In this document: piece by piece, positions 2,386 through 63,962 of the stretch | How positions within the stretch are numbered: the first letter of the stretch is position 1 | Layout: each line of letters begins with the position of its first letter | IMG/VR virus record: IMGVR_UViG_3300037200_000074 | Strand: one strand, 5' to 3' | Origin: an uncultured virus (IMG/VR IMGVR_UViG_3300037200_000074) | Lineage: Duplodnaviria > Heunggongvirae > Uroviricota > Caudoviricetes | DNA length: 64,000 nucleotides | Position numbers and translations under genes: made by a program | The notes under the pieces: model-generated | Database searches by the model: none | The model's input: only the letters and a program-made list of their open reading frames with translations | Told to the model about the DNA's origin: nothing

Positions 2386-3339
2386 TTACAACAGCGCGGC
2401 TGTAACGTTAGCCCACAGTTGGGCTTTAGTCAGCGCGGTTGAGTATGTTGCTATGTTTTGCACCCGCATCGCAGTCGGATTAGCCCCAGTGGTGCCTGCG
2501 CCGATAGAAATAGCGCCATTGCCCGCCGCTGCGCTACCGTTCGCACCTTGAAGTACTGGGACACCGTTTAGGTATAGTGTACCGATGTTAGAGGAATTTA
2601 CTACCATCTGCACAAGACCCCGGAAGTATGTAGGGAGTGTACCATGGTAGTCAGACCCATCTCTGTCAACATAGATCCCGTAGCTAACATAATACGCAAC
2701 CAAAAGGTGGCTACTGGCTGTCGTATCCCCCAAAGCGCCCATAATACCTGGGGCTGTTCCTTGTGGAGTGCCCAAAAGCTCTACCAGGAACTCTAGGGTA
2801 TACGGTCCTATAGTGGCTGGGCCTGTACCTGGTGCGCCAAGTAGCATGTCGGTTGCGACGTTACCTGCTAGTGCTACGCCTGTCGCAGAATCGTTGAGTA
2901 GTCCAGGCGCACCTACTAAAGCTGTTGACCCAACACTCAGTGTGTTTGCTCCAACAGAATTAGCAAGTGCTGTAGCCGATGCCGCATCATTGCAACGCCA
3001 TTGATTAGTGATTGAAGAGATAGCACGCTGCGCGGCGTCGAGGGATGCAATAGTACCGCCGCCACCGCCACCGCCTGCTGCTTTGAGGTCGATATGCCCT
3101 GTAGTAGGAGTAATGGTTACGGAACTGTCACTACTACCCAGTGTAATAACGCCTGTCTCCCCGTCGAGCGACGTTACGCCCCCACCTCCCCCGCCACCAC
3201 CGCCTGCTGCAACAAGAGCAGCAATAGTTGCACTACTCGAAGTATATGGCCCACCCGAAGTCCCATGCTCAATCGGCACCAGGTCAGTTGAATTGGGAGT
3301 AGCTACCGATGGTAGCGATGGAATAGTCTCGTCAGCCAT
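2386..3339 (-). CDS. virion fibre/receptor-binding-like protein with C-terminal LamG/concanavalin-A-like domain
   Basis: poly-Gly linkers, VTSLDGETGVITL fibre repeat, LamG-like motifs (YTLEFLVE, TLYLNGV, ISIGA, QNIATYSTALT). Confidence 0.7.
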   Translation of the reverse strand: MADETIPSLPSVATPNSTDLVPIEHGTSGGPYTSSSATIAALVAAGGGGGGGGGVTSLDGETGVITLGSSDSSVTITPTTGHIDLKAAGGGGGGGTIASLDAAQRAISSITNQWRCNDAASATALANSVGANTLSVGSTALVGAPGLLNDSATGVALAGNVATDMLLGAPGTGPATIGPYTLEFLVELLGTPQGTAPGIMGALGDTTASSHLLVAYYVSYGIYVDRDGSDYHGTLPTYFRGLVQMVVNSSNIGTLYLNGVPVLQGANGSAAAGNGAISIGAGTTGANPTAMRVQNIATYSTALTKAQLWANVTAALL

Positions 3340-22464: not shown

Positions 22465-22842
22465 ATGGCGATTGAGTCGTACTATCTCGAAGAGTTGACC
22501 AGCGAGCGACTGAGAGGTCTGTTGGAGGCTCTTGGCGGTTCCGCATCTCTAACATCCGGCAATTCCTCGCGCATGGCGGGTAGAGCAGTCGGTAAGATTA
22601 TAGGAGATAGCATTCGTAGTCGGGTGGCAGCAAAGCTGCTTGAGTTACAGGACAAGTACGGCGACATACTGTCTCCCAAGAACGCACTGTTACCCGGCCC
22701 CGCGCGGCAGGAATACGAGGACTGGTACATAACGCAACGCCAGCCGGACATCGACGCGGGCAAGAAAGATGAGAAGCACTACCGTATGTGGGCTCATGTT
22801 CATCTGTCGGACACGCTGAAATTTCGTAAAGAGTTAACTTGA
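22465..22842 (+). CDS. hypothetical protein, possibly related to 21156..21500
   Basis: YxxxR...AxxHLxxxL C-terminal helices. Confidence 0.6.
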   Translation: MAIESYYLEELTSERLRGLLEALGGSASLTSGNSSRMAGRAVGKIIGDSIRSRVAAKLLELQDKYGDILSPKNALLPGPARQEYEDWYITQRQPDIDAGKKDEKHYRMWAHVHLSDTLKFRKELT

Positions 22843-34172: not shown

Positions 34173-34326
34173 TCGTTTATTTCAATGCCCTCAGTGCGGG
34201 GTGTACTGGGAGCGAGCGTCACACGTAGATGCTTGCCTAAACAAACACGACCAAGATGCGCTGAAGGAGATTATGGATGCCAGCGAACAAGATGACAGAA
34301 GCTATCACAATGGTATGGGCTGCTGA
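34165..34326 (+). CDS. 53-aa Zn-finger peptide
   Basis: FQCPQC...C..KH; AAGGAG RBS before TTG; TGATG overlap with methyltransferase. Confidence 0.5.
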   Translation: MPDRLFQCPQCGVYWERASHVDACLNKHDQDALKEIMDASEQDDRSYHNGMGC

Positions 34327-35273
34327 TGCCGGCAAATAGTAGGGCTGGTTACGCCCTCTTTCACCTCGACCCAAATGGCAACGCAGAACTATTGAAGATT
34401 CATCGTGATCTCTGGGCACACAATCAAAGGTATGATTACTTCAGCCATCAGTTTGGTCATACATGCGATGACTTCGATAAGCACCCTGAGCTTGACATGT
34501 GCGCCATGTGTCTCGAGAATGGTGGCTGGTTCGACTTCCCTGAACGCCTTGCGCGAGGCGACTATTCTGCAATGATGTTGAAGTACTCGTTCTTTGCGAA
34601 GTACTTTGTAGGAGAACGAATGGAGGGTACGGTTGTTGATCTTGGGTGCGGGCCGCTTGCTGCAGTTGGCCGCATGTTGTATACTAATCGTCGTAAGGTA
34701 GCCCACTATGTAGGCGTTGATTATCGCAACCCTAAGCCCGAGTACAAGCCACACTTCCCAGCCACCTTCATGCAAGGTGACGTCACAGATTGGGACGGAA
34801 CTTACACTAAGGTGCTCGACGCGTTAGAGGGCAAACCGCCTGACGTCATAGTGACACTCGAAGTTCTCGAACACATGAGCAAAGAGAAGGGGCTAATGTT
34901 CCTAGCGAACATCAAGCGACTCTGTGCTCCGGGTACGGTAGTGTTCTTGTCCACGCCGTGCCACGACAACATTCACCTACCGCACGATCATGTTTACGAG
35001 TGGGGCCATGCTGAACTAAAAGCGCAACTCGAACAGGACTTCATTATCGAAGACAACATGGGGACGTTCGCCAGTCAGCGTGAGATAGTTCCTGTCTTGA
35101 CACCCGACGAGCGGCTCGTGTATGAGAAGATGCAACGCTTCTATGATTCCTCACTCATCAGTGTACTGTTCGCGCCGATGCACCCAGCGGAGTCACGCAA
35201 TAGCATCTGGCGTCTACGGGCTCTGCCGACCAAGTCGAAGATTACTACAGGCGGTCGCGACAAGAAAAGGTGA
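34326..35273 (+). CDS. class I SAM-dependent methyltransferase
   Basis: VVDLGCG, YVGVD, EVLEH, FLSTP, HVYEW motifs; lacks DPPY/NPPY or PCQ DNA-MTase motifs. Confidence 0.85.
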   Translation: MPANSRAGYALFHLDPNGNAELLKIHRDLWAHNQRYDYFSHQFGHTCDDFDKHPELDMCAMCLENGGWFDFPERLARGDYSAMMLKYSFFAKYFVGERMEGTVVDLGCGPLAAVGRMLYTNRRKVAHYVGVDYRNPKPEYKPHFPATFMQGDVTDWDGTYTKVLDALEGKPPDVIVTLEVLEHMSKEKGLMFLANIKRLCAPGTVVFLSTPCHDNIHLPHDHVYEWGHAELKAQLEQDFIIEDNMGTFASQREIVPVLTPDERLVYEKMQRFYDSSLISVLFAPMHPAESRNSIWRLRALPTKSKITTGGRDKKR

Positions 35274-35710
35274 CCGAGTTTATTCTCATTCGCATAATCA
35301 ACCAGGAGAATCCTGAGCTACTCGTCGATGCGTTGCGCGTCGAGCTAGACGCTTACCTGAGGACTACCAACCTGCGACCGGGCCTTGACTACGAGATTCA
35401 GACGCCGGACGACGTCGATCCGTTACGAGGTCTGTCTGGTGAGTCGAATGGGATGTCTTCTAAGAAGCAAATGAACTTGCTTAAGTGGCGCATTGACCTG
35501 CTGCGAATAAAGCATAAGCTAATCATACCTGACCCGGAACTAGATGAACAGGCTTCGTTGGTGCTGTTCGTTTATGATACTGAGTGCCGCGAGGGGCCTA
35601 TCACGAGCAGTCGTGCCTCCAGCATGATAGACGCGACCAACGATTTACTAGAGGAGATTGAATGCACAGAATCTACATCGCAAGTGCTCTCAGCAACAAA
35701 AACAAAGTAG
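35270..35710 (+). CDS. hypothetical protein in modification cluster
   Basis: 146 aa, GTGA overlap. Confidence 0.6.
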   Translation: MTEFILIRIINQENPELLVDALRVELDAYLRTTNLRPGLDYEIQTPDDVDPLRGLSGESNGMSSKKQMNLLKWRIDLLRIKHKLIIPDPELDEQASLVLFVYDTECREGPITSSRASSMIDATNDLLEEIECTESTSQVLSATKTK

Positions 35711-36084
35711 ACCAACTATTCTCAGTCATAGAGGCACACCATCCGGTTGAGTTCACCTACAAATGGTACGAAGTAGGAAAAGTCCCGAAGGACGCATACC
35801 TAGACGTGGCGTCGAAGGAATTGCACGGCGTACTCAACGCCGATGTCTTCATTGCGCTATTGCCAGGGAAGAAAGGCACGCACACCGAACTTGGAATTGC
35901 AATCGCCACCTGTCCGAAAGTTATAGTGCTCGGTGAAGAGGATGACTTCGAGCCGGTAGACGAAGACAATTACCCTAGTATTTTCTACTTCCTCCCCATG
36001 GTAGAGCGAGTCGTCTATGACGGTACTCATGAGGGACTCTTCAAGACAGGATTGAAGGCATTTGAACAAGCGATTCGACGCTAG
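35662..36084 (+). CDS. nucleoside 2-deoxyribosyltransferase / nucleotide N-glycosidase-like protein
   Basis: IYIAS...ADVFIALLPG..GTHTELGIA. Confidence 0.8.
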   Translation: MHRIYIASALSNKNKVDQLFSVIEAHHPVEFTYKWYEVGKVPKDAYLDVASKELHGVLNADVFIALLPGKKGTHTELGIAIATCPKVIVLGEEDDFEPVDEDNYPSIFYFLPMVERVVYDGTHEGLFKTGLKAFEQAIRR

Positions 36085-36340
36085 CATCTCCTATGACATC
36101 GACATGGTAGTCGATGACGAGGCGCAAGACATTCTTGCCAAGAACCTTGAGTCGTTCGGCGCGCGTAACATCAAAGTAGTTCTGAAGCCATGGACGGGCG
36201 CAGGCGAACATGAATTCGTAGGTTCGAACATACCAGGACTTGAAGGTCGCGCGGTGTGTATCAAGTGTACCAAGACGCGCGACGACGCACCCGAGAAGTG
36301 CGCAGGTATACCAGTAACTTCTAAGGCGGTGCGGAAGTGA
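36062..36340 (+). CDS. hypothetical protein
   Basis: 92 aa; HxF...CxxC. Confidence 0.5.
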   Translation: MNKRFDASISYDIDMVVDDEAQDILAKNLESFGARNIKVVLKPWTGAGEHEFVGSNIPGLEGRAVCIKCTKTRDDAPEKCAGIPVTSKAVRK

Positions 36341-37272
36341 ACATCGCCGAGACGTACCAAGATCACAAATCAAGGTATTTTGCATGGATGTTCGAGCGCC
36401 AACACATCTGGTACAAGCGTTTCGTTGAACGCTCGAAGCCACCATTCTCGGACGATCCCATCATGGTGGAGAACCGATTCACCAATACCTACCGCGAGCT
36501 AGACCGTGGTACCAAATACGCTTTGGCTGAAGTGCTACCTTGTAGAGAATTAGACGACCAGTTTTGGAATGTGTTCATGAGGACGCTGGCGTATCGTCTC
36601 TTCAACAAGGTAAGCACCTACGATAAGGTGTTTCGACCCGCTGAATTCTTCACTTCATCTATCTGGGGTGCAGGCGATGATGAATGGGAGAATTTGGCTG
36701 ACGCGCTCTACGAGCTTCATGAAAATGAGCCTATCTTCACTCGTGCTCACGTCATTCCTACCTTTGGTGCGGTAGCCGCCAATGAGGAGCGTAAGAGCGA
36801 CGCTATCATCGCGTTCTTGCGCCAAGTAAACACAGAGTTCAAGCCGGTGCTACAAGAAATCCAGCATATGGGCTTCGAGGAGGCGCATCGTCTCTTGATG
36901 AAGATCAATCACATCGGTGACTTTCTTGCCTTCGAAATCCTATCGGACCTAGCCTATACCGGCTTCGTGCAGTTTGACGAGGATGAATGGGCCAACGCCG
37001 GACCAGGTGCTCGAGATGGTCTGAAGCTTATCTACCCTAATGATTCACGCATGCCAATAACGCTAATGAAAGAACTGCAGGACCAGCAGGACCTTATGTT
37101 CGCTTCGCTCGGTCTACCTATTTATCTCTATGTAGGTCCAAGCGTACACAACGCTCGCCTTACGCTGCGTAATATTGAAGGTGGGCTCTGCGAGTACTAC
37201 AAGTACAACAGCTGCGTCAACGGTAAAAAGCGGCTACCGTTTCAGATAGGTCAGGGGTACGTCTGGAAATAG
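36337..37272 (+). CDS. aGPT-Pplase1 / 5-hmU DNA kinase helical-domain family base-hypermodification protein
   Basis: ERQxIWxKR...PPFSDDPI...RFTNxYRELDRGT...YRxFN...GxFLAFExxxDL...GPGAxxGL...IExxLCEYYKY. Confidence 0.85.
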   Translation: MNIAETYQDHKSRYFAWMFERQHIWYKRFVERSKPPFSDDPIMVENRFTNTYRELDRGTKYALAEVLPCRELDDQFWNVFMRTLAYRLFNKVSTYDKVFRPAEFFTSSIWGAGDDEWENLADALYELHENEPIFTRAHVIPTFGAVAANEERKSDAIIAFLRQVNTEFKPVLQEIQHMGFEEAHRLLMKINHIGDFLAFEILSDLAYTGFVQFDEDEWANAGPGARDGLKLIYPNDSRMPITLMKELQDQQDLMFASLGLPIYLYVGPSVHNARLTLRNIEGGLCEYYKYNSCVNGKKRLPFQIGQGYVWK

Positions 37273-37620
37273 GTAGCCTAGTGCAAAAGGGAGTGACTGA
37301 TGCTGCGATTGGTATTGGTGCCTTAAGCAGTACTGCGTTACCCCTATTGTACTGTCGCGGTATTTCTTTAAGATAGCTGATATCCCTTCAGCGTCTGCAA
37401 CCTGCGCTAAAAATAGTTCCTGCCTGGGGTCCAACTTAGCGTCTACTTTTAGCTCAAGAGCTACGTACCGGCCAGCGGCGCATATTATTAGGTCAGGGAT
37501 GCCCGGTGCGTCGTCGTGGGTGCACCACCACTGAACGCGGTAGCCGATGGAGACTAGGTGCTCTAGCTCGCCAATGACCTGGTCTTTGAGAATGCCCTCA
37601 GGAGTTGCTCTTCCAGCCAT
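37234..37620 (-). CDS. VRR-NUC / PD-(D/E)xK nuclease (resolvase-like)
   Basis: E...GIPDL...LELK...Q motifs. Confidence 0.85.
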   Translation of the reverse strand: MAGRATPEGILKDQVIGELEHLVSIGYRVQWWCTHDDAPGIPDLIICAAGRYVALELKVDAKLDPRQELFLAQVADAEGISAILKKYRDSTIGVTQYCLRHQYQSQHQSLPFALGYLFPDVPLTYLKR

Positions 37621-38039
37621 TCAAATTTTTGCGCCGTTACACCGTAATGTCCCTGCATCACTTCGATAGTCTCTTCGCCAGGTTCACTGTCGTCAACCCA
37701 CCAGAACGTTTTGACATTGATCATTCGTAAGACGTGGTAGCAAGTGATGCACGGCGCGCAAGTAACTATCGCGGTCAGCGGTACCAGCTGCGTGATGAAA
37801 TCATAGTAGTACTTAGCAGCAGCAGCTACCTCAGCGTGAATACAGCCACACTGGCGTGGAATATTTTTGCACAGATGTGAATAGCCGGCGGTCTCTGAAT
37901 TGTGGCCGCGCGCGACTATGATTCCGTCAGGCAACGTTAATACAGCCCCTACCTTGCGGCGCTTACAAGTAGACTTACGCATCTCTTCACGCAGCGCGAC
38001 GTAAGCAGCGTGTAAGTGAGGGTCCAGATCCCGCTTTAT
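37563..38039 (-). CDS. dCMP deaminase-like protein
   Basis: STCxRRKVGAV, GHN, HAE, PCxxC; frame is open upstream of ATG 37982, start uncertain. Confidence 0.85.
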   Translation of the reverse strand: MKRDLDPHLHAAYVALREEMRKSTCKRRKVGAVLTLPDGIIVARGHNSETAGYSHLCKNIPRQCGCIHAEVAAAAKYYYDFITQLVPLTAIVTCAPCITCYHVLRMINVKTFWWVDDSEPGEETIEVMQGHYGVTAQKFEWLEEQLLRAFSKTRSLAS

Positions 38040-41936: not shown

Positions 41937-43019
41937 TTAGCTGACCAACTCTATCCCAAATTGAGCAACCGCAAAGTCAGAATCAACCCAAGCCACGCCA
42001 GTTATAGGGTTAACTGGAAACTGTCTAACTATGTACTTGTAGTCAGACCCTACTGCAGCGCCTGCGTCAAAATGGTCTGTAGTACCATCACTAATTCCAA
42101 AAGAAACTACGCGAGCAGGCGAGTCATCTTTTCGAACTAGCGCATAACCTGATACACCGTATATCTCGGTTACGTCTGTAAGAGTGGAGGGCTGAGGGCC
42201 TTTGAATAGTTCCTTATTACCGGGCGTGTTGGAACTAACGGTGCTAGTGTCACCGTCAGGCGGTATGTCATTTACTGCTGTCCACGGCTCCCCACTAGTG
42301 CCGCCTGTCTGAATAAAGTCATCTTCATGACCTATCGCATTGGGTGCGATAGGTACAGCTTTCACGTCACCTAAGAAGGAATCTCCAAGAGTCATGCTAG
42401 AAGGGGCGCGAGTGTACGCATCGTCGAAATATTCATTAAAGTTTACGTAATTACTACCACCGTTGACAAAAGCAGATCCGTATATGTTTGGGGTTGAAGA
42501 AGTTGTCACTCCAGTTTCATGAAGCACAACTTGGCCATTCACCATAATTTGAACAGCACCTGCGCCCGAGGCATTCGCAATCAAGTCAACTTCTACGTAC
42601 ACCCACTGCTCAAATGTAAAGGCTAGCGGCGCACTAGCAAATGTAGGTGAACTAGGTGAGGAGTCAAAATTACCTACGTAGTAGCCGATCACACCAAGTG
42701 CGCTTAGAGTTACAGCACCTACAATTTTACCCATCGAATCTAAGAATGTATAGATAGGTGAATTGTTTGTGTAAAAACTATTGCTAGTAGTCTTGATTGC
42801 AAAACCAGCAACCAAACGAGTGTACGGTCCTGTTGGCCACACGTATCCTACATGAGATCCGCCTTCCCCCGCCTGTGCTAGGAAAGCGCATTGACCATAT
42901 CCAAAACGACCTGGACTCACCAGAGACGGAGGGTAGTCACCGTCAACGACGTAAAAGTAGTCACTGAGATTACCCAGTATGTCAAAACCAGTTTGGAAAA
43001 TAAGATCAGTGACAGACAT
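41937..43019 (-). CDS. virion lectin-like (concanavalin-fold) protein
   Basis: GFD..GRFG..WVYVEV..DDxY..FLGD..NP.TG.AW; paralogue of neighbour. Confidence 0.65.
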   Translation of the reverse strand: MSVTDLIFQTGFDILGNLSDYFYVVDGDYPPSLVSPGRFGYGQCAFLAQAGEGGSHVGYVWPTGPYTRLVAGFAIKTTSNSFYTNNSPIYTFLDSMGKIVGAVTLSALGVIGYYVGNFDSSPSSPTFASAPLAFTFEQWVYVEVDLIANASGAGAVQIMVNGQVVLHETGVTTSSTPNIYGSAFVNGGSNYVNFNEYFDDAYTRAPSSMTLGDSFLGDVKAVPIAPNAIGHEDDFIQTGGTSGEPWTAVNDIPPDGDTSTVSSNTPGNKELFKGPQPSTLTDVTEIYGVSGYALVRKDDSPARVVSFGISDGTTDHFDAGAAVGSDYKYIVRQFPVNPITGVAWVDSDFAVAQFGIELVS

Positions 43020-44026
43020 TAACCTGAACTCCCGTCGCTATTAGCATTCTGGACTACTATTTGTATGTTGTCAACATCACCCGGTGCCCAAGCTACACTG
43101 GTGAAAGGGTTCGTGTCTAACACATCAAAGCTGTACTTGTAGTTAGTGGCGGGAACTACACCAGTAGGTTCGAAGATATCAGTCGAGCCATTACTGACAC
43201 CAATGTAATACTTAGCTGGGTCAGTGTCATCTGCTCGCGCAAACACATCAATCTGAACTCCAAGTACACTGTCGGGGTCTTGTGACGGTGCCGCAACAGT
43301 AAACGCTGACTTAGCTCCTGGGGTACGAGTAGCTACATAAGTAGCGTCGTAATCAGGCGTGGGGTCATTAACGCAGTCAGCTCCTATAGACGCACCTACA
43401 GGTGCCCAAGTTGAGATGTGCCCAGCCGACTGAACGAATCGAGTGTCCACTCTCCGAACCCCGGCGAAAGTATTATTATCTCCGGAGGTATCGAACCAAT
43501 AATTATCGTCAATGGTGCCCGCTCCTGATTCCCACTCGTAGTTAAATACCAGAGGGCTGGATGGGTTGGGGATTCCAGTGTTACCCGTTCCACTACCCGC
43601 CGCTGCACCATCAATTTGAAAAGAAACTGTTTGAACACTACCCCACCCTGATACTTCCATTTCAATGTAAGCCCAGGTACCAACAGCTATCAAACCAGGA
43701 GTGCTGCTAGCAATCGGATTATGTGAACTGTCGAATGCTGTAAGTACGCCAGACGAATACTCAAGAGTCATGAGGAGTGTATTGCTTGTAAGTTTTAGGA
43801 TGACTCCGGTAGGATTAATGCAAGCGAAGCCTACAACCAGTCCAGCTGGAGAACTGCCAATAGCATTGACAGTAAGAGATCTCAGTGCCTGAGTAGGGGT
43901 GAAAGAGTTACCACCAAAGCGGCCTGCGTTGGAATTTACTACTCCAGGATTGCCACTAGCTTCGTAGTACAGCGGGTAGAGATCAGCAGTTGCTAGGTGG
44001 TCCCAGCCGTCTATGAAAAGTAACAT
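43019..44026 (-). CDS. virion lectin-like (concanavalin-fold) protein
   Basis: FIDGWD..GRFG..WAYIEM..DDxY..NPFTSVAW. Confidence 0.65.
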   Translation of the reverse strand: MLLFIDGWDHLATADLYPLYYEASGNPGVVNSNAGRFGGNSFTPTQALRSLTVNAIGSSPAGLVVGFACINPTGVILKLTSNTLLMTLEYSSGVLTAFDSSHNPIASSTPGLIAVGTWAYIEMEVSGWGSVQTVSFQIDGAAAGSGTGNTGIPNPSSPLVFNYEWESGAGTIDDNYWFDTSGDNNTFAGVRRVDTRFVQSAGHISTWAPVGASIGADCVNDPTPDYDATYVATRTPGAKSAFTVAAPSQDPDSVLGVQIDVFARADDTDPAKYYIGVSNGSTDIFEPTGVVPATNYKYSFDVLDTNPFTSVAWAPGDVDNIQIVVQNANSDGSSG

Positions 44027-50895: not shown

Positions 50896-51472
50896 CGAAC
50901 ACGTCAGCTTCGTGAACTATACCACGCCCATAGCTCGGGGTTATGTTAGAATCCATAGCCGCGCGACTGGTCAATACTTTAATGCGCCGGCCATTAAGCA
51001 TAACATCTACAAATATGTTGCGGATGTGGTCAGCTACGCCTTTATCTGCAGCTTCGATAATAGCGGGGCCAAGCACCGGACGAGGCGGTATGCCATGATC
51101 CAAGCGTCCCTCACCGTATTCACCAGTTTCCTGAACCTGAGCGTAGGGAGACTCAGAACCAATCGACACCTTGCCTAAACCAGACCGAACGACCTCATAA
51201 GAGTCCTTGAGGTCGCCTGTTTCGTCTAGCGGTTCGTCGTTAGGATTTATTCCGCGCTGTTGCCGACGCCTAAGCGTACTCTCTTGTAGAGGTGCCCACG
51301 CAGGGAACGGTCCTACCTGAGGTTGATAAGTACCAAACTTACTTCTAGCTATGAACAGTACTTCTTCTGCAGCACCTTCAAGCGCGTCGCCAATAGCCTC
51401 TTTGGAATTGAGGCGCATGCGACCAAGAAAGGCACCCATGACAGCAAACGAAGTGAAGTTTATGTCTGCCAT
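50888..51472 (-). CDS. tail completion / virion morphogenesis protein (HK97 gp10-like)
   Basis: WAPLxESTxxR...PLxxTGxL...IGS..YA..QExG...IPPRPVLGPA. Confidence 0.8.
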   Translation of the reverse strand: MADINFTSFAVMGAFLGRMRLNSKEAIGDALEGAAEEVLFIARSKFGTYQPQVGPFPAWAPLQESTLRRRQQRGINPNDEPLDETGDLKDSYEVVRSGLGKVSIGSESPYAQVQETGEYGEGRLDHGIPPRPVLGPAIIEAADKGVADHIRNIFVDVMLNGRRIKVLTSRAAMDSNITPSYGRGIVHEADVFDG

Positions 51473-52029
51473 TTTAATGCCAGTCGTATGTGATCTCTAG
51501 CACTCTTAAGATTTTTACCTCGTAGTGTTACATACTTGGTACAAACCTCTTCGTAACTGTGGTTTTTCAGTTGTTCGCGAAGCCATGAAGCCCAACTCAT
51601 ACCATTAGGCGCATCACCTCTTTTAACTGTTCCTCGGAGTGACTCACTTAAACTAGCTCGATGCGCGGTAGTCTGTTTTTTACCAATTTTTGCCGCGCTC
51701 ATCTTAGCCCGAACTTCAAAAGTAAATCTTATAGGGTTTACTACAAACAAAGTCATGTTGTATTCAGGCTTAGTTAAGATCAAATAAACTTGTTCACGTT
51801 CTCGAACTACGCTTTCAGTACATCGTTCAATAACTCTACAAGAAAAATTATTGAGTCCGTACTTGTTTACAGCTCGCTGTAGTATAATGTTACTGTGTTT
51901 ATTATTTCGCAGTAATTTTTTGTGCGCTCTCCAGCGGAGATTCATAGTAATAGAAGAACCTATGTAACGTTTCCCATTGATTGTGTTAGTGATCTCATAG
52001 ACCCCACACCCATCCAGTACTTCGCTCAT
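51460..52029 (-). CDS. GIY-YIG homing endonuclease
   Basis: GVYEITNTINGKRYIGSS...RWxxH...E..YN, NUMOD3-like RAKMSAAKIG; AT-rich. Confidence 0.92.
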   Translation of the reverse strand: MSEVLDGCGVYEITNTINGKRYIGSSITMNLRWRAHKKLLRNNKHSNIILQRAVNKYGLNNFSCRVIERCTESVVREREQVYLILTKPEYNMTLFVVNPIRFTFEVRAKMSAAKIGKKQTTAHRASLSESLRGTVKRGDAPNGMSWASWLREQLKNHSYEEVCTKYVTLRGKNLKSARDHIRLALKWQT

Positions 52030-53276: not shown

Positions 53277-54821
53277 CTACGTCAACGCGGTGTTGGTTAC
53301 GACTTGTACGTCTACAGACTGACCGCCTGTGACATTGATAATGAAGCGGTTCACGTTAGCGAGGTACGCTACAACCGCGTCCGCCTGCATGATACCCATC
53401 TTGATTTGGGTAACTGGATTGTTCGTGAGATCACACGTAAACGTGTACGCGTCGATTGCGTTACCTATCTGAGGCGCAAAGTATCCGTTACCTGCAGCCC
53501 GTGCCGCTTCACGCAAAGGATCGTCAGCCTGGGTAGACTGAGGTTGATCAACGAACTGACCCATCGTAATACCGGATAGTGCTCGCACGATGTCGTTGGT
53601 CTTACGCGTATATGCGATTTCGTTCTGGGCGATGTTCGACGAGGAATTTTTACCATGTCGAATACCCAGTGCGTTTGCGCTCGGAATGCGGTCTGCGATG
53701 AAGTCAATGCCCGCCGCTTGCAGGGTAGCCTCGTCGGAGTCACTATAAGTCTGTGCCAGTGGCCCGTAGGTCTTGTCGGTACCGAGTAGACCGTAAACTT
53801 TCTTGTTGCCGGGTGAGACGTGTGGGAGTACCGAGCAGCACACACCTGCAAGAACACCCGCCGAAGGAATATAGATATTCAGACCCAGGTACGTGTCGAA
53901 GTAAACCGCGAATCCCAACATGAGGATGAGGTACGGATCGTCTGCCCCTGCACTAGCCTTCGTAGAAACTGCAGTGGCCACGCTAGTACCAAGTGGAAAG
54001 TTACCGATAGCTGCTGAAGCTTCAGTACGTGCGAATTGCAGCATGGTGGACCAAGTCGTGTTATCGGTGCAACCCGCTAGCCAAAACACATCCATACCCT
54101 GATTAGACAGCGCCTGCATACCTGTACGCATCGCGCCGCTGACAGTGCCAAGCAGTGTAGCTGATGTGATACCGGAGGTACCGTCTGTACCACCTGCAAG
54201 TGTTGCTGTCATACCCGCAGTAAGCTCGACCGTGCTAGAAGTACCGGCACTAGCAATGATATAGTTTGAAGGAGCGTTATATGCTCCGCCGGTGTTCATA
54301 GCTGCTATCAGCGCAGCTACCGAACCAGTAGCTGGAATGCGATCGTAAATTTCTGCCAAACTACCCGCTAGGTACACCGATGCCTTTAAGGTAGCGGGGA
54401 ACGTACCTGCACTGATGGTTACCATAAGGGTATCACCCATAATGCCGTTGTAAAGTCCCGTAAATATGATCTGCTTAGTACTACCACTAGCTCCGAGGTA
54501 ACCTGTAGCCGCCGTAGAGGTTCCATCATCAACTCGAACAGTTGAGAGGCCACCCTGTGGGCTTTGTTTCAAAAAGACTGCGCCCTCTTGAACCATAGGG
54601 GCTACATTACCTGCAATTGGCAGACCGTAGTTACTAGTGAGATCACTAGCGCTGCTGTTGTTGAGGACAACGTTCAGCGGACCCCAGCTACCCCCACCAA
54701 CTACCGCACCTTGCAGCGTAGAGCCACTAGTAGTAATCTGCGGCTGTGGCGGTAAGACATTTACGTAGACGTCATCTGCACCAACCGCGCCGCCTGCAGT
54801 GCCGTAGCTAACCTGACCCAT
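53277..54821 (-). CDS. contractile tail sheath protein
   Basis: DVYV..P, VGxxSWGP, LAGGTDG, SPGNK, CDLTNNP motifs. Confidence 0.92.
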   Translation of the reverse strand: MGQVSYGTAGGAVGADDVYVNVLPPQPQITTSGSTLQGAVVGGGSWGPLNVVLNNSSASDLTSNYGLPIAGNVAPMVQEGAVFLKQSPQGGLSTVRVDDGTSTAATGYLGASGSTKQIIFTGLYNGIMGDTLMVTISAGTFPATLKASVYLAGSLAEIYDRIPATGSVAALIAAMNTGGAYNAPSNYIIASAGTSSTVELTAGMTATLAGGTDGTSGITSATLLGTVSGAMRTGMQALSNQGMDVFWLAGCTDNTTWSTMLQFARTEASAAIGNFPLGTSVATAVSTKASAGADDPYLILMLGFAVYFDTYLGLNIYIPSAGVLAGVCCSVLPHVSPGNKKVYGLLGTDKTYGPLAQTYSDSDEATLQAAGIDFIADRIPSANALGIRHGKNSSSNIAQNEIAYTRKTNDIVRALSGITMGQFVDQPQSTQADDPLREAARAAGNGYFAPQIGNAIDAYTFTCDLTNNPVTQIKMGIMQADAVVAYLANVNRFIINVTGGQSVDVQVVTNTALT

Positions 54822-54982
54822 TACTTAGATTTCTCCTCTTGGTTGCTAGGCGCAGCTTTTTCCGCATCATCGTCGTTGTACCGAACGAACACCCCGGTAC
54901 CCTGCATCTCGGTGGGAATGGTGTCGTAGCTCTCCCCACGAGTGTATGGACCGAAGGTTTCACGACATCTATACTTAATCAT
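54821..54982 (-). CDS. small protein preceding sheath (53 aa)
   Basis: MIKYRCRETFGPYTRGE...; ATGA and TAATG overlaps on both sides. Confidence 0.6.
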   Translation of the reverse strand: MIKYRCRETFGPYTRGESYDTIPTEMQGTGVFVRYNDDDAEKAAPSNQEEKSK

Positions 54983-55620
54983 AATTGCCCCACTTGCAGC
55001 TTTTGTCTTGCCGGTGCTCCGACTACGACATTGGTTTCGATTGTGATGACCTGTGTTGCATCAACTTCTACCACTTCAGTAAAGTCTGATTCGTACATAA
55101 ACCTACGCACATACACAGAGTCTACCTGTTCCATATCTACAGTTTTGTTTACTTGATATTTGAACAGCGTGATGGTGCTGTCACCATTACGCAAGCGGTA
55201 TGCGTCCGTTAACAATATTCGAACTAATTTACATATAGCTTTCCGACTCTCTTCGCTATATGACCATACTTCAATTATTGCTTGCTTCTTCTCGCGGGCT
55301 ACCTCGATATATTCCGTTCCTGAAGCAGGAACCCCTGTTGACCCAGGGGTGGTGTAATTCACCTGCGCAGGCTTCCTATTAAGGAAAGGGAAGACCCCGC
55401 CCTTATCTCCTTCGTAGATTGCGACCTGAGCTAGTTTATTCTCCAGTCGCTTCATAACGTGATTCTGAATAGGGTGTCCATAGGCTATGAGCGTAGCCGG
55501 TATTTGTCCTGCTGTAGCCAATGGATTCGGGAAGCGCATAGGAACATTAGGCTGATAAGGAGCTAAGCCTTCAGCTATGAAGTACGCTAAATTATCTAAG
55601 ACCTCGTCAATGTCTGCCAT
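54979..55620 (-). CDS. tail terminator / neck protein
   Basis: MADIxxV...YP, EVxRExxQ, synteny before sheath. Confidence 0.7.
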   Translation of the reverse strand: MADIDEVLDNLAYFIAEGLAPYQPNVPMRFPNPLATAGQIPATLIAYGHPIQNHVMKRLENKLAQVAIYEGDKGGVFPFLNRKPAQVNYTTPGSTGVPASGTEYIEVAREKKQAIIEVWSYSEESRKAICKLVRILLTDAYRLRNGDSTITLFKYQVNKTVDMEQVDSVYVRRFMYESDFTEVVEVDATQVITIETNVVVGAPARQKLQVGQL

Positions 55621-57977
55621 TATGCTTGCTGTACAGCCTCAAGAATTACACCAGGATTAAATGTACTAGTAGTGGTGGTGGCCGCTGATTTATACGTAAC
55701 GCTCATTATGCCATTAAGCGTAGTGTTAAGAGTTGAAGTAGGTGTAAGAGCTTCAACGAATACCTGCGCTACCACTAAGCCAGTTATACCAGTAGTCGCA
55801 CTTGTACCGTTTAAAATACGCAGCCATCCTGAGACCGCTCCCGTCGATCCAATATTAGTAACCGTAAAGAAAATTTCGATGTCGAAGGGTACAGCGGTGC
55901 CTGTTGCAGCAGAAGTTACTGCTGCCGTCGCGATTGCAGCGTCGGCCGTGGTTCCGGTCGTGCCGTATCGCAGCGTAAACGTTGAAGCGTTCGCCGCCGT
56001 TGCGGTACACGTACCAGGCAACCGTGCGCGGTAGACGGTGCCCACAAGTAGCCCACCTGTGCCGACCGGGGCCGTGGCAATTACGGTCTCGGTCGTATTG
56101 AGCCCGGCCGTTGCCGCAGTCTTTGCCTGCCCACTAATAGCCATACCAACATTGTTGGTAATGTTCTTAGCTGTCGAGGACGTGCTGTTATCGGTGATCG
56201 CGGTCGTGTTGCCACGCAAGTTGTTGTTGTAAATCTCAAGCGCGCCGTATGCACCGGAGTTAATCGTAATGCCGGTAGTGTTTGCACCGATGCCACCAGT
56301 AGGCCCAATGCGATTACCTATGGCTTTGAGTTCAGTTACTGAGCCTGCAGAGGCGTTGAGTACGATGCCGATGCCGTTACCCGCGATACGGCACAACGAG
56401 ACGCCTATGTCCTGACAGCCATTTGCGACAACGCCGCTCGTGCCGTTGCTATAGATGTCGCAATTTACTACGTCGATACCCGTTGGTAACGTAGCAGCGG
56501 TAGAGGCTACTTGCAGACCGTTTAACGCTGCAGACGACATCCAAGAGTTGAGAATCTTGACTCGTTGTACATTACCCGTTCCAACAATCTGCACACCGTT
56601 CTGACCTGCAGTATCAAAGTATGTGTTTACTGCATAGACACCAAACACGCCATTTGGTGACGTAGGATTTAGGCGCATATTGTTGAGCGCACGAATCCAG
56701 TCGCAGTCTGATATGAGTAAAGAACCGCACTGATTTACTTCACAGTGCGATATAGCTGCCGGAGCCCCATCGCAAGTAATATTGTGAAGTATAGAATTGA
56801 CGTTAGCACCATTACACTGATTATCGAAGTTTATGGTACCTGAAAATTGTATGTTATAAGTTGCACAGAGAGTACCATTGTGAATGATGCCATTATAGAC
56901 GGCGGTGAAGGCGCAGTCTCGCGTGTTGATGTAGACGTTCGACCCACCATTGATGGCATAGCCGCCGGTCTTAAACTGTACCGCGCCAAGTGCTGTAGTA
57001 GTAGCTGCTACTGCAGTAGTACATCCTGTGAGAGACGTAGTAGTAGACCCGGTAAAGTTTACGAGGGTCCAAACGTTCTGACAGTTAACATAGCAAGAAC
57101 CAGCACCACCACCACCGGGTATAAACGAGTTCGCGGCAATCGTAAGTGTGACGCCGCCAGTGGTTGGGATTGCAACAGCCGCGCCGGTAAGCGTCGTAGC
57201 ATTGCCGTTAAACGTAATACCCTCGAAAGTCTGTTGCCAATCACCGCAGGTGATGAAGTCTGCAGATTGCGACGCACTCAAGAATATTGTCTTGAACTCA
57301 CCTGCACCAGCATGGTGGAAGTGCTTACCGGAAGGAATCGATGGGTTCGTACCGCTCGAAAGAACCATCGTACAAGGCGGCCACAGGAGCACACTGCCAG
57401 AAGGCGCGGCGGCGTAAAGAGCGTTTAGGTTCGCCGAGTCATCAGTAGCGCCGTCGCACGCAAGGTTCTGATACGAGTTTGCCGTGACTAAGACAACTGC
57501 TGCGTTAAATTTTGAGATGAAGAGTTTGTCTAGTGCGGCCAGAGCACCCTGCAAAGTTGTAGTTGCAGGATTCAGCATCGCAGTAACTTGAGCTGCGGTT
57601 AAGTCAAGCAGAGCTCCGAGGGCACCAGTGTTGTTACCCTTGATAGTGTTCGCAGGCGCATTAGCAAGATACGAGTTAGATACTGAGCTAGCAGCTAGTG
57701 ATAGATTGGGATTACGAGTATCGCCTAAGTTAGTGACTGGGCTAACAGTCGTAAGACTCTCAAGATATGAAAGAGACAGTGCAGTATCAGGTATGCTTCC
57801 TGCAGTGATATTAGCGCCGGAGATAGTCGGTGCACTACCTGTGAGGAATTGATGCGTACCGCCTGCGGAGTCCTCATAGTAAGGCAAAAACGTGGCGCTA
57901 TCCATGTAAATGGATATTTTACCAGTTGATGGCGGGGTAGGAGTAGCCTGTGATACTAAAGTAAGTACGGATGCCAT
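55620..57977 (-). CDS. pectin-lyase-like beta-helix virion appendage
   Basis: DGATDDSA motif, Asn/Gly/Thr-rich beta-helix repeats, ANTIKGNNTG fibre repeat. Confidence 0.75.
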   Translation of the reverse strand: MASVLTLVSQATPTPPSTGKISIYMDSATFLPYYEDSAGGTHQFLTGSAPTISGANITAGSIPDTALSLSYLESLTTVSPVTNLGDTRNPNLSLAASSVSNSYLANAPANTIKGNNTGALGALLDLTAAQVTAMLNPATTTLQGALAALDKLFISKFNAAVVLVTANSYQNLACDGATDDSANLNALYAAAPSGSVLLWPPCTMVLSSGTNPSIPSGKHFHHAGAGEFKTIFLSASQSADFITCGDWQQTFEGITFNGNATTLTGAAVAIPTTGGVTLTIAANSFIPGGGGAGSCYVNCQNVWTLVNFTGSTTTSLTGCTTAVAATTTALGAVQFKTGGYAINGGSNVYINTRDCAFTAVYNGIIHNGTLCATYNIQFSGTINFDNQCNGANVNSILHNITCDGAPAAISHCEVNQCGSLLISDCDWIRALNNMRLNPTSPNGVFGVYAVNTYFDTAGQNGVQIVGTGNVQRVKILNSWMSSAALNGLQVASTAATLPTGIDVVNCDIYSNGTSGVVANGCQDIGVSLCRIAGNGIGIVLNASAGSVTELKAIGNRIGPTGGIGANTTGITINSGAYGALEIYNNNLRGNTTAITDNSTSSTAKNITNNVGMAISGQAKTAATAGLNTTETVIATAPVGTGGLLVGTVYRARLPGTCTATAANASTFTLRYGTTGTTADAAIATAAVTSAATGTAVPFDIEIFFTVTNIGSTGAVSGWLRILNGTSATTGITGLVVAQVFVEALTPTSTLNTTLNGIMSVTYKSAATTTTSTFNPGVILEAVQQA

Positions 57978-58207
57978 TACAGAATCATCAACTCGCCTTC
58001 ACATGTTACGGTGCCATCAAGTTCTATAGGGCCTACCGCTACCTGGTAAGTCCCCGCTGGAATGTCAAACGTTGTTCCACCGGGGACTACCTGCGGTACC
58101 TGTGCAGAACCACTCGACGTTGGCAAAATCGAAGGATCAATCAAGTCCGGAGACGTGATCATCGATAGGATGCCGTTGATAATCGTGAGCGGTTTGCGGT
58201 TTGCCAT
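57977..58207 (-). CDS. small virion protein
   Basis: MAxRKPLxxxxG N-terminus; C-terminal IELDGTVTCEGELMIL. Confidence 0.55.
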   Translation of the reverse strand: MANRKPLTIINGILSMITSPDLIDPSILPTSSGSAQVPQVVPGGTTFDIPAGTYQVAVGPIELDGTVTCEGELMIL

Positions 58208-58716
58208 TACGCGAGGGTAATAGCGTACTGTGGATCGAAGTTGAGATTACCTGCTGCAGTAGCTTCACCAACTTGTTGACACACTGCACCAGCCGCAGTC
58301 GGAGCGACTGAAACGGTTGCGCCAACAGTACCTAAGTACTGGGTAGCTCCTGGGGTAAGACCAGTGACTGCATTGTTATTACCGTAAAAGTAAACTAGTG
58401 CAGTAGCTGCAGAAGAAAAAGCGGTCAGTACGAAGCCATGTGCTGGCTTACCCGCTGCAGAATTATCAGCGTTGCGCACGTTGACTACGCCTGCATTAGG
58501 CCACACGTTGACCAACGCCCCCGCCGACAATGCCTCACTAGCAACAATGCTAGCAGTGTCTGGTCCAACACCAGTCGGAAGCATGGTGATATCGATTTGA
58601 CCTTGAGAGTTTAGTGCAGGGATTGCACCTGCGCTGCCAACACCGGCAGAAACTTGAAGTCCTCGCACCATGGTAATTACACCATTTACGAGATTAAGAA
58701 ATGCGTTACCTGCCAT
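58207..58716 (-). CDS. capsid cement / head-fibre-like protein (DUF2190-like)
   Basis: ASEALSAGxxVN...RxAD...AHGFV...GLTPG..YL...P....Q.VG.A. Confidence 0.7.
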   Translation of the reverse strand: MAGNAFLNLVNGVITMVRGLQVSAGVGSAGAIPALNSQGQIDITMLPTGVGPDTASIVASEALSAGALVNVWPNAGVVNVRNADNSAAGKPAHGFVLTAFSSAATALVYFYGNNNAVTGLTPGATQYLGTVGATVSVAPTAAGAVCQQVGEATAAGNLNFDPQYAITLA

Positions 58717-58725
58717 GATGATCTC

Positions 58726-59625
58726 CTAAGTGGTTAGTATTATAGGGGAGCGAGGGTGCCACAGTATAGTCGTGGCGTTAACCGCAAGGCCAACTTGAGT
58801 ATTGTACAAGTCGCCGTTAGCTGGAGTTGGAACAACTTGAGTAATGAAGCCATTACGGCTAAGGTAAAGGGGTAATCCCGGTTGCCAATTCCAGGTTGGT
58901 TCTATAACATAACCAAACACAACTGAAGTTACTTCAGCAGCCGCTGCATATGCAGCAGTAATTATGCTTACCGGAAGATTGATTAAGTTAATGTTAGTCG
59001 AGTCAGCGTAAACAATGAAGCCTTGGTATTCTACAACTGCTCGGTCGCCTGATAAAGTGCCGCCTGCAGTACCGCTAGTAATAACTAGTTCACTAGGGTT
59101 TGCATTAGGCGGTGGCTCATAGATTTGGCCGGCCCCAACATTAACATATATTGAAGGCTTAGGCGTTGCTACGCTAAACTCAGGTATCTCAGGTGGGCGG
59201 TAAGGAAATACTGGGCGCGTTTCGGGATGTTCGATACCTTCAGGAACAGGCTCGTCTTTGATTACCTCAAGAATAGCTGTAAGGAACCACTCATCAGGAA
59301 ATGGTTTAATCAACAGATAGTCGGCACCTACCCTCTTATGATCAGAAACTGACTTCTGACCCATAGAAGTGACTAATACTATCTTACCAAGGTAGCCGCT
59401 CTTCCGCAGGGTCAGAGCTACCTCAACGCCTGTCATACCTCGCATGATTATGTCAAGTAGAATGACTACAGGCTTAAGACCCTTAGTAATTGCCTGTATA
59501 AGAGACTCACCGTTGTCGAATACGCCAATTACGTTCATCCCATACTTAACACACACAGCTTTGTTACGTTGAAGTTGCTGTGTTGAGTCATCGGCCATAG
59601 CTACTGTGACGCCTTTTAGGTACAT
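58726..59625 (-). CDS. CheY-like receiver domain fused to DUF2190-like decoration domain
   Basis: ADD, LLDIIM, TSMGQ, GADYLLIKPF; Pro-rich linker; C-terminal LSGDRAV...WNWQPGxPLYL..NG..TQ..P. Confidence 0.8.
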   Translation of the reverse strand: MYLKGVTVAMADDSTQQLQRNKAVCVKYGMNVIGVFDNGESLIQAITKGLKPVVILLDIIMRGMTGVEVALTLRKSGYLGKIVLVTSMGQKSVSDHKRVGADYLLIKPFPDEWFLTAILEVIKDEPVPEGIEHPETRPVFPYRPPEIPEFSVATPKPSIYVNVGAGQIYEPPPNANPSELVITSGTAGGTLSGDRAVVEYQGFIVYADSTNINLINLPVSIITAAYAAAAEVTSVVFGYVIEPTWNWQPGLPLYLSRNGFITQVVPTPANGDLYNTQVGLAVNATTILWHPRSPIILTT

Positions 59626-59966
59626 GTGCCTAACCGCGCGTCAATTTTAGCCTGATACTTTTGAATGATCGGACTGACCTTATCGTTGTACTCTTCTTGC
59701 AAGCTGTCAACTTTAAGGTCTAGCTGTTTTTGATAATCTTCTTCATGCCACCTATACAAGTAACTCAGTAAAAGATCGCCATTACGACCTCCAAGAGCCC
59801 TTGCTTTGTCCGCAAATTTAACCGGGCCAAGCCGTATTGTATTATAAGCTTCTTCTGCCTGCAGTATAGCTGCACGAAGCCACTCTTGGATAGACTGAAT
59901 CTCTGCATCTCGCTCTGCCAACAAGTCCTTCACAGCTTCCAGATACTCGCGTCCACTCAAACTCAT
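59616..59966 (-). CDS. coiled-coil hypothetical protein
   Basis: 116 aa helical, charged. Confidence 0.6.
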   Translation of the reverse strand: MSLSGREYLEAVKDLLAERDAEIQSIQEWLRAAILQAEEAYNTIRLGPVKFADKARALGGRNGDLLLSYLYRWHEEDYQKQLDLKVDSLQEEYNDKVSPIIQKYQAKIDARLGTCT

Positions 59967-62516: not shown

Positions 62517-63962
62517 TTAGACCTGCGAACCAACTTCGAATACTGCTGCGCGTTTGTAGCGAGCAGGCGTAGCGGAGGGAATCACTGCCGGAGTGATGGT
62601 CGCGTCGGTTGGCACCGTGAAGCCACCGATGTAAAACCAGCCCTGAGACATGATCTGACCCATGCGGTCGATTGGGAGACGGTGCACCATGGCGATGTCT
62701 TTCACCATCCGGATATCCGAGATACCTCGACCTGTGAGTTCAGCCGCAACAGTCGCCACACCTGCAAACGGCGCTTCCTGCACAAACCTGTCAGCGCATA
62801 CTACTGCACGCCGAGCGAACAACGTCTTGCCGGCAGTGTTAGTGAAGGTAAAGATCGGCATGTTTGTCGTAGGTACGAACGTCATACCGAAGTTCTTGAG
62901 TACCCGAGCGTTAGCATACGACGAAGATTTTTCCGCACCTTGGGTAAGGATTTGGAATGCCGGGTCGGAGAACATCTGCGCGTCGAGAATGGGATCGATG
63001 AAGCACGGGAACGTACCATCCGGGAGCGGCGGGCGCACCTGGTTGAGACGGAAGCCTGCTACGATGTTGATAAACGTCTGCAACGTCGTGGTAGACGCAG
63101 CTGAGAGTTCAACACGCGACCGTGCAGTACCTGGACGGTAGTATGCCGGAGCGTCAGCAGCATAGATGATGTCGTTTGCAGCTGCGGTGATGCCAGTGCC
63201 CTGAATGGTCAGAGTGCCCGAGAAACCGACCTGGAACAACGGCGCTGCCATAGTCGAGGTGTTGCTACCATCCGGCACCGCTGCCAAGATGGTGATGGCC
63301 GTCTTCGCGCCGGTAGTCGCATTGACGTAATACGCCGGGAGCGGGTAGACCGACGAGGTAGCTTGCGGTAGACCGTAAGGGAATTGATATCCCTGAATGG
63401 TCGCCGTAGCGAACGCAGTGTCGAAGCCGTAGATGTTATCCACGTGAACGGTAGTATTAGCGCCAGAGGTAGCCGAAGCTGCCGTAGCGTAGGTACGCCC
63501 GCCTTCATACGCACGAAGAAGAACGTTGATAGCCTTGAGGTCGAGTGACAGACCTGCCTGGCGACCGAGGTTCTCGATGTTCTGTTTGAAGCCATCGGCG
63601 ACAAGCTCGCGCTCTTGATAGAGGTTGAGGTCGAGCGCATACGGCGTCATACCGATGATGACTTTGTACTGCTCCACACCGTAGGTGGGATTCGCTGCAC
63701 CGATACCGCCGACGTTGGTCAGGCCGTTGTCGATGTTAACGTTGGTGGTCGGGTCGATGTCGTCAACGACCGGAACCAGTTCACCAGCACGAGAGTAGAT
63801 CGTAACTTCACCGGAACGCACTGGCTGCGGTTTGCGATACACAGCGGTACGAACGACGCAGTTGGGTTCGAGTTGGTCTTGAAACTCCCGGTCCAGCATG
63901 TTCTGTTGGAAAGCAGGCTGTAGAACAAGGGGGAAATTTTCATACCCCGCGCCAGTTATCAT
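62517..63962 (-). CDS. major capsid protein
   Basis: QQNxLxREF, GETxT-like/GxL.P motifs, LGxQAxxSLD, C-terminal PxDR.xQ...xWxxxGGF..PTD; position at head of structural module. Confidence 0.82.
   Translation of the reverse strand: MITGAGYENFPLVLQPAFQQNMLDREFQDQLEPNCVVRTAVYRKPQPVRSGEVTIYSRAGELVPVVDDIDPTTNVNIDNGLTNVGGIGAANPTYGVEQYKVIIGMTPYALDLNLYQERELVADGFKQNIENLGRQAGLSLDLKAINVLLRAYEGGRTYATAASATSGANTTVHVDNIYGFDTAFATATIQGYQFPYGLPQATSSVYPLPAYYVNATTGAKTAITILAAVPDGSNTSTMAAPLFQVGFSGTLTIQGTGITAAANDIIYAADAPAYYRPGTARSRVELSAASTTTLQTFINIVAGFRLNQVRPPLPDGTFPCFIDPILDAQMFSDPAFQILTQGAEKSSSYANARVLKNFGMTFVPTTNMPIFTFTNTAGKTLFARRAVVCADRFVQEAPFAGVATVAAELTGRGISDIRMVKDIAMVHRLPIDRMGQIMSQGWFYIGGFTVPTDATITPAVIPSATPARYKRAAVFEVGSQV

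Follow-up and report, generated by a model that had tools for sequence, protein, structure and literature searches.

An open reading frame (ORF) of 299 aa in a 64,000-nt stretch of DNA from an uncultured virus (IMG/VR record IMGVR_UViG_3300037200_000074), the whole of which is here called the window, joins a two-component receiver (REC) domain to a beta-rich domain of virion type. The window comes from a contractile-tailed peat phage. We give somewhat better than even chances to the reading that the 299-aa protein is the virion-proximal initiator of a bead-chain fibre like that of Anabaena myophage A-1(L), that REC mounts this fibre, and that its phospho-acceptor pocket modulates the mounting. 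REC sits where the fibre is normally hooked to the particle, with its catalytic residues kept, in the head-neck module of the phage clade, and this raises the question of a part for phosphorylation chemistry in the construction of virus particles. Neck fibres of the bead-chain type have been described before, as have receivers encoded by phages; a receiver that takes the anchoring place in a fibre initiator, within a structural module and with conserved catalytic residues, was met neither in the literature nor in the phage collection searched. The proteins are small and easy to express, which makes the question directly testable.

The earlier note on this DNA, made from the letters alone, described the ORF as a receiver joined by a Pro-rich linker to a C-terminal domain, and proposed looking for reads across the junction and for the same fusion in relatives. 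All of these points are borne out. A second assembly of the same phage in IMG/VR (contig L001) encodes a protein, P0001, identical to the 299-aa one except for a single residue, and the 286-aa protein P0002 has the same order of REC, linker and C-terminal domain, with 41-44% identity over 99% of the query. Contigs from three other peat metagenome runs (X2, X3 and X4) cover the ORF at 99% identity or more and without indels. Record 12 of X4 (58959-59429) spans the end of REC, the linker and the start of the C-terminal domain with neither differences nor gaps, and the junction is also bridged by record 8 of X3 (59103-59361) and record 5 of X2 (59130-59478). The note had further considered that only a C-terminal product from an internal start might be made; no in-frame ATG, GTG or TTG occurs between residues 106 and 235, so that a separate C-terminal domain initiated at such a codon is not available. 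At residue 96 (59338-59340) the window encodes His, as do the contigs of X2-X4; P0001 and most family members have Pro there, in an SDP-K motif.

A tblastn search of the phage collection with the 299-aa protein returned seven matches, none of which covers both REC and the C-terminal domain. In agreement with the earlier statement that no such fusion had been described, our literature search turned up neither a fusion of a receiver domain to a phage fibre nor a report of such a domain in a virion. The REC variant of a jumbo phage described in PMC7824862 is NAD-linked and differs from this one.

The N-terminal part of the protein is a genuine receiver with an intact predicted active site, as its hallmarks had first suggested. 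Response_reg (PF00072), the sole Pfam domain of the ORF, matches residues 8-117 (E 1.9e-13, 51 bits against a cut-off of 30.2). The signature segments A11-D12-D13, L56-L57-D58-I59-I60-M61, T86-S87-M88-G89-Q90 and K107-P108-F109 are present, and the catalytic set D12, D13, D58, T86 and K107 is complete, at positions that match invariant family columns. The full-length AlphaFold2 model, built on a 73-row alignment (A1), has a mean predicted local distance difference test score (pLDDT) of 84.9; residues 1-125 exceed 90 and form a (beta/alpha)5 fold of five strand-helix units. In Foldseek comparisons the template modelling (TM) score by target is 0.92 with Thermotoga maritima CheY (6c40_B; root-mean-square deviation, rmsd, 1.4 Å) and 0.85 with the Spo0A receiver (5wq0). 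The proposal of a CheY mimic that alters host chemotaxis fared less well, nothing specific speaking for it: among the NCBIfam models Spo0A (50.5 bits, cut-off 200) and NarL match best, ahead of CheY, CheY_Halo scores 32.7 bits against a cut-off of 200, and REC stays far under every NCBIfam equivalog cut-off. It is thus not a CheY equivalog.

The window was also said to lack a histidine kinase, and among its 109 ORFs there is indeed no match to HisKA, HATPase_c, Hpt or che families; the 62.5-kb record of a relative (L002) likewise has no match to HATPase_c or HisKA. With no phage kinase found, any phosphotransfer would have to come from host kinases. A-1(L) gp24, annotated as a 'response regulator transcription factor', was considered as a counterpart and set aside, having no similarity to this REC.

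The C-terminal domain of the 299-aa protein is related by sequence to fibre beads. The sole solved entry matched outside the receivers is 8keg_a, 'neck fiber gp82N' of A-1(L), over its residues 115-239/241 (phmmer E 1.3e-5). A profile of 93 relatives matches residues 131-241 of 8keg_a with E 1.5e-22, and BLASTP aligns residues 174-297 of the phage protein to residues 121-241 only of A-1(L) gp82 (26% identity over 126 residues). A gp82N-type N-terminal domain was not found in the 299-aa protein, whose N-terminus is REC. The pLDDT of the C-terminal domain is above 90 for residues 180-299 in the full-length model and 94.5 in a model of this domain alone. The latter was compared with solved structures (VIA Z scores), giving phage Adjutor entry 8saj (Z 11.6, rmsd 2.6, 112 residues aligned), the HFTV1 portal-capsid interface entry (Z 10.3), the phage Patience entry (Z 10.0), chain 8hdt_G of the Pam3 capsid entry (Z 9.3), the TW1 entry of capsid and capsid-stabilising protein (Z 7.4), the E217 vertex entry of capsid and decorating proteins (Z 7.3) and the phi29 head-fibre gp8.5 base (Z 6.6). 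The top 13 rows are all capsid, procapsid or portal-vertex entries of phages or archaeal viruses, and two of their titles name a decorating or capsid-stabilising protein.

The earlier description of this domain as DUF2190-like or cement-like therefore holds for the fold, whereas the family is that of fibre beads. A DUF2190 protein in BFVD reaches a TM score by target of 0.63. Pfam PF09956 (DUF2190/Phage_cement_2) does not match the 299-aa protein at E up to 1; it gives weak matches in 10 of the 73 members of alignment A1 (best E 1.6e-4), and a word-based search with the C-terminal domain alone returned only the protein itself. The likeness to the neighbouring 169-aa protein, also pointed out before, is upheld by the match of both to phrog_4368 (E 1.9e-12 and 1.7e-16), whereas direct BLASTP between the two is weak (35% over 49 aa, E 0.003).

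Within the disordered linker AlphaFold2 places short strands at residues 162-163 and 167-168, and residues ~158-170 may form a short hairpin-like element. The bead profile reaches the ORF only from about residue 160, at position 25 of its 161, leaving unmatched the first 24 positions of the profile, which represent the N-termini of the small bead proteins; HMMER alignments to several of these proteins reach back to residues 134-150.

The genes that follow point to the same fibre system. Those for the 299-, 169-, 76- and 785-aa proteins abut or overlap by one base, and the 169-aa protein (matched by 142 database proteins at E <=1e-5) is an orthologue of A-1(L) gp81. According to PMC10966104 (Nat Commun 2024; PDB 8KEG), gp82N (residues 1-125) attaches the A-1(L) fibre to gp5 in the neck, gp82C (126-241) makes up a flexible bead, about 14 gp81 trimers are joined head to tail through N-terminal beta-hairpins, gp80 forms the distal end of the ~100-nm fibre, and the co-expressed gp82-gp81-gp80 complex self-assembles. 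In the window, the 76-aa protein is probably a distal adaptor. Its N-terminal docking motif is common to the downstream proteins of phages ACP17, KPP25, AP1 and DS-1410Ws-06, and KPP25 has a 68-aa ORF at the matching position. The motif MA-x4-L-x3-NG... is shared by gp81 and the proteins just downstream; the 299-aa protein starts with REC instead. The 785-aa distal protein has no Pfam, PHROG or PDB sequence match and no tblastn match; structural leads suggest that it is probably a right-handed beta-helix, tailspike-like protein.

Bead-chain fibres of the A-1(L) kind form a portable module of wide occurrence: gp81-like genes are present in 64 phage records, and 124 of 150 listed representatives match the bead part only (see below). 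The initiator accepts very different N-terminal domains. In four of the five other phages compared (A-1(L), ACP17, KPP25 and DS-1410Ws-06) the gene upstream of the gp81-like one carries the bead domain behind a differing N-terminal part of 57-120 aa; in the fifth, AP1, that gene has no bead-domain match. Other N-terminal parts found on the bead domain are of fibre or tail types, namely collagen, Mtd_N, DUF5907 and the phrog_1718 'tail protein', the last seen in P0025; P0008 bears a 107-aa N-terminal domain without a family match, and P0013, P0015, P0028 and P0033 have two or three beads in tandem. The 64-kb window contains two bead domains only.

Docking between the fused bead and the 169-aa protein was modelled as a hexamer of three bead chains (residues 165-299) and three 169-aa chains, with a separate alignment for either protein. 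The score was 0.93 (three runs at 0.93, 0.92 and 0.93), against 0.01 for the best of three controls. In a calibration without hexamers or own alignments as used here, 116 of 157 solved complexes attained this mark, as did 2 of 215 mismatched pairs. The runs agreed in 100% of contacts, with a partner pLDDT of 91. In the model residues 2-18 of the 169-aa protein, the predicted docking hairpin, lie against the C-terminal strand of the bead (residues 293-299 of the full-length protein) and neighbouring loops. The prediction thus supports binding of the 169-aa N-terminal hairpins to the fused bead.

We propose the following course of assembly. The C-terminal domain of the 299-aa protein would trimerise into a bead, on which the N-terminal hairpins of the 169-aa protein would dock; the latter would polymerise head to tail, and the 76-aa adaptor and the 785-aa beta-helix protein would complete the chain. 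REC, on its flexible linker of ~45 residues, would fill the place of the neck-hooking N-terminal domain of A-1(L) gp82 and would mount the fibre, its conserved alpha4-beta5-alpha5 face contacting a protein of the neck or of head completion. The intact phospho-acceptor pocket would modulate this contact while particles are being assembled inside the cell, the phosphate coming from a host kinase or from acetyl phosphate. REC would be an older resident of the head-neck module in the clade. The bead homology, the gp81-orthologous next gene and the modelled docking together put REC in the neck-anchoring place of a fibre initiator; since the protein would start the chain as gp82 does, REC would stand at the virion-proximal end and most likely mediate mounting. 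Assembly may be gated by phosphorylation, given that the phage REC family keeps its catalytic residues throughout. The location in the virion, the role of REC as anchor and any phosphorylation are all three things that we infer. The earlier idea of a signalling domain assembled into a virion appendage gains from the place of the C-terminal domain in the gp82C/gp81 bead family, from the gp81-orthologous neighbour and from the modelled docking; the appendage itself, seen there as a cement or decoration protein, agrees in fold but is better described as the initiator of a bead-chain fibre than as capsid cement.

A further-reaching version is unlikely in our estimate. It holds that REC is a true structural part of the virion (as the neck-proximal module of the fibre here, as a free-standing neck-module protein in relatives), and that its phosphorylation at assembly, set by host kinases or acetyl phosphate, decides whether the fibre is mounted. 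If REC were in the virion or gated fibre mounting, two-component chemistry would be put to a new use that ties the composition of the virion to the state of the host; with gated mounting, the physiological state of the dying host would be imprinted on the released particles.

The wider REC family places the receiver gene in the head-neck module as a conserved member in this phage clade. An exhaustive protein search found 5190 proteins at E <=0.001. Among the 150 representatives listed, 124 have the C-terminal domain only, 24 REC only, one both domains (P0002) and one REC with another C-terminal module (P0003); REC thus occurs in one of the 125 listed bead-bearing representatives. Close relatives of REC (42-66% identity) are P0004-P0007, P0010, P0002, P0003, L002 and L008. 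The nearest is the stand-alone P0004, at 66%. P0004-P0007 and P0010 are stand-alone REC proteins of 116-148 aa, and with L002 they bring the single-domain form to 6 of the 10 family members seen. D58, T86, K107 and P108 are invariant in all nine aligned family sequences and D12/D13 in all eight that cover them; the KPFPDEWFL stretch at the start of helix 5 is conserved as well. The C-terminal ends of REC are of three kinds: the bead (window, P0002), a 60-aa module (P0003) that is matched at the C-terminal ends of four PHROGs without known function, and none. A conserved N-terminal and a variable C-terminal part are typical of phage fibres, and the three ends of REC conform to this pattern.

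The gene order is shared by the window, the 62.5-kb contig L002 and L008, where a 257-aa homologue and a protein of ~116 aa precede REC. The stop codon of the 116-aa helical protein overlaps the ATG of REC by 10 nt, and the three syntenic loci all have this protein ahead of REC. The idea that it is an HPt or kinase-like partner was rejected, with no family match, no conserved His by eye in the window, L002 and L008, and only generic helical matches in the ESM Atlas. The REC domains of the window and L002 are 52% identical, within the range of the ten other module proteins compared (34-75%). In L002 the 213-aa gene and then the sheath gene come immediately after the stand-alone REC, and no fibre genes intervene; the bead profile found nothing in the whole record (62.5 kb, CheckV 85% complete), whereas both bead domains were recovered in the positive control. 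The REC of L008 continues into a linker at the contig end. PDB sequence searches with the 213-, 257-, 269- and 785-aa proteins gave no match.

Some details of L002 may be recorded here. At 9960-10060 the first beta-strand of its REC (YLKGVTVI) is in frame, with no ATG, GTG or TTG upstream of the Met of 'MADDS', and the 115-aa ORF upstream ends 18 nt before this Met in another frame. The start may be non-canonical or arise by re-initiation, or the protein may lack its true N-terminus; the idea that a -1 frameshift links the 115-aa gene with REC was discarded, no slippery site being recognised. An extra ORF of 100 aa (L002:8594-8896), without a PHROG match or a window counterpart, lies between the 278- and 260-aa genes.

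Outside the clade REC has only remote kin. Receivers from cells stand much further off (partial alignments at 27-45% identity, mixed phyla). Genome scans for a prophage or host found nothing with the 257-aa alignment and only matches of 27-45% with the REC alignment; as these come from mixed phyla, they carry no host signal. A metagenome scan with the REC family yielded one true relative, L008, and the other 79 loci kept are ordinary receivers (best E 5e-11). Further relatives in IMG/VR are limited to L001, from the same phage, and the 62.5-kb contig. The REC-domain tree has no starred branch and 8 of its 11 are open, and fusion events cannot be counted from it.

Several points weigh against a fibre mounted by REC. 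L002 has a REC standing alone and no bead domain was found there, which implies a role that does not need the fibre. No homologue of A-1(L) gp5 was found among the 14 ORFs of the module, and contact of REC with any virion protein is something we infer. Fully conserved catalytic residues would fit a working signalling receiver and not a mere hook. If residues ~158-170 were a docking or anchor hairpin, REC could be an add-on and not the anchor, and most of this segment lies outside the complex model, which started at residue 165. The hexamer and the own alignments depart from the calibration; moreover, a low-resolution map of the recombinant A-1(L) fibre exists, and some memory effect in the model is therefore possible. 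Two 151-nt contigs at 58689-58963, from one RNA-library run, are weak evidence for transcription. REC may act as an anchor, a phospho-gated adaptor or a signalling module.

The main rival is a soluble role, a doubtful reading in our view. REC would then be a cytoplasmic signalling module late in infection, acting as a sink for phosphate or imitating a host response regulator, and the bead would only trimerise or tether it, its presence in the virion being incidental. The conservation of all five catalytic residues fits this, as do the stand-alone form of most family members seen, the retention of REC in L002 where no bead genes were found, the expectation that phosphotransfer would come from host kinases, and the occurrence of REC-bearing proteins in other viruses. 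A purely soluble role does not, however, predict the fixed slot in the head-neck module or the fusion to two different virion-type C-terminal modules. Nor is there a cellular protein similar enough to be mimicked (34-40% identity in the best matches, from mixed phyla) or an internal start for a separate bead protein. REC is not a CheY equivalog, and the chemotaxis version has no specific support.

Less likely again, and rather improbable, is that REC is displayed cargo. Here the fibre would be anchored otherwise, by the hairpin-like segment at 158-170 or by the bead acting as capsid cement, and three REC domains would dangle outside, for example as divalent-metal-dependent sensors or binders. 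The cement/decoration fold of the bead, the long and disordered linker, the backward reach of the HMMER alignments, and initiators of other phages with only 57-61 residues before the bead, a length like that of this linker, are all compatible with such an arrangement. Against it, phospho-Asp chemistry would lack a donor in the extracellular space, the N-terminal end of the profile of small bead proteins has no counterpart here, and nothing ties REC to an extracellular ligand. Finally, that the fusion is an artefact of assembly or gene calling and the two domains are really separate genes is hardly credible, with the same ORF in L001/P0001, the same layout in P0002, a junction bridged in three runs without a stop or internal start, and nothing found in its favour.

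Table 1. Positions in the window of the features discussed
Feature	Position	Strand	Evidence
Whole ORF, 299 aa: REC, linker and bead domain in a single frame	58726..59625	-	ATG start; ORF call, homologues, contigs of other runs
REC domain, residues 1-125	59251..59625	-	Pfam, AlphaFold2, Foldseek, conserved catalytic residues
Pro-rich disordered linker, residues 126-174	59104..59250	-	AlphaFold2 pLDDT <50 for 131-168; sequence
C-terminal beta-rich 'bead' domain, residues 175-299, gp82C type, cement/decoration fold	58729..59103	-	Sequence and fold matches
169-aa orthologue of A-1(L) gp81, repeating bead	58207..58716	-	49% identity over full length to A1L_81 'neck fiber protein'
76-aa protein with N-terminal docking motif	57977..58207	-	N-terminal alignment; BLASTP to ACP17_71 N-terminus, E 0.02
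785-aa distal protein	55620..57977	-	ESM Atlas leads: pectate-lyase superfamily phage clusters at 0.88; Beta_helix by structure
213-aa protein (phrog_13532), just before the sheath gene	54979..55620	-	PHROG match; in L002 directly after stand-alone REC
116-aa helical protein directly upstream of REC	59616..59966	-	No Pfam/PHROG family assignment
Major head protein	62517..63962		
Sheath	53277..54821		

Besides the head and sheath proteins (Table 1), the window encodes tube-region proteins, a tape-measure-like protein, baseplate J, a family A DNA polymerase, a primase-helicase, a 5-hmdU DNA kinase and Pam3 gp33/gp34-like proteins. No near-identical DNA was found in the phage collection, and the major capsid protein is only 32% identical to those of Ralstonia phages. 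A cluster at 30213-37982 suggests modified thymidine or nucleotide metabolism, with genes for a MazG-like PRA-PH, a thymidylate-synthase-like protein, a methyltransferase, a nucleoside 2-deoxyribosyltransferase-like protein (weak), the 5-hmdU DNA kinase (PF18723, E 1.8e-50) and dCMP deaminase. A GIY-YIG homing endonuclease lies between tail genes (51460-52029), and two HNH endonuclease ORFs are found in the replication region (22839-23366 and 25996-26502). Adjacent paralogues of 360 and 335 aa beside baseplate J (41937-44026), both phrog_2448, may be duplicated fibre or baseplate-periphery proteins. Positions 1-6000 have a G+C content of 56-59%, against 46-51% in most of the remaining window, and their ORFs have no family matches except a weak Laminin_G_3 at 2386..3339.

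The closest known system is the gp82-gp81-gp80 fibre of A-1(L). The C-terminal domain of the 299-aa protein is homologous to gp82C, the next gene product is 49% identical to gp81, the gene order mirrors that of A-1(L), and the modelled docking of gp81-like hairpins on the bead agrees with the model published in PMC10966104. The differences lie at both ends and in the setting. The domain gp82N, which binds the neck pentadecamer gp5, is absent, and REC with its linker stands in its place; the distal part would consist of the 76-aa adaptor and the 785-aa beta-helix-like protein and not of the 201-aa gp80; and the fibre genes form part of the head-neck module instead of lying at a distance from it, in a phage otherwise unrelated to A-1(L). 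The fibritin neck whiskers of T4 are likewise fibres mounted at the neck, a conceptual parallel only. The discussion in PMC10966104 mentions proposals that these whiskers assist or control the long tail fibres under unfavourable conditions.

The capsid cement and decoration proteins (PF09956; PF22758 Phage_cement, named for E217 gp24/Pam3 gp6; the phi29 gp8.5 base) are alike in fold. In contrast to them, the 299-aa protein has no Pfam cement match of its own, its nearest sequence relatives are fibre beads, and binding to the capsid lattice is not indicated. To our knowledge, receiver domains act inside cells as phospho-switches. With the two-component receivers CheY, Spo0F, Spo0A-N and NarL-N (PF00072) the phage REC shares the fold, the acidic pocket, the phospho-acceptor Asp and the Thr/Lys switch residues. 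Unlike these, it is encoded by a phage within a structural operon, no kinase being found in the window or the 62.5-kb relative; it carries the family-specific KPFPDEWFL stretch; and it is joined to a virion-type beta domain in place of a DNA-binding or enzymatic output.

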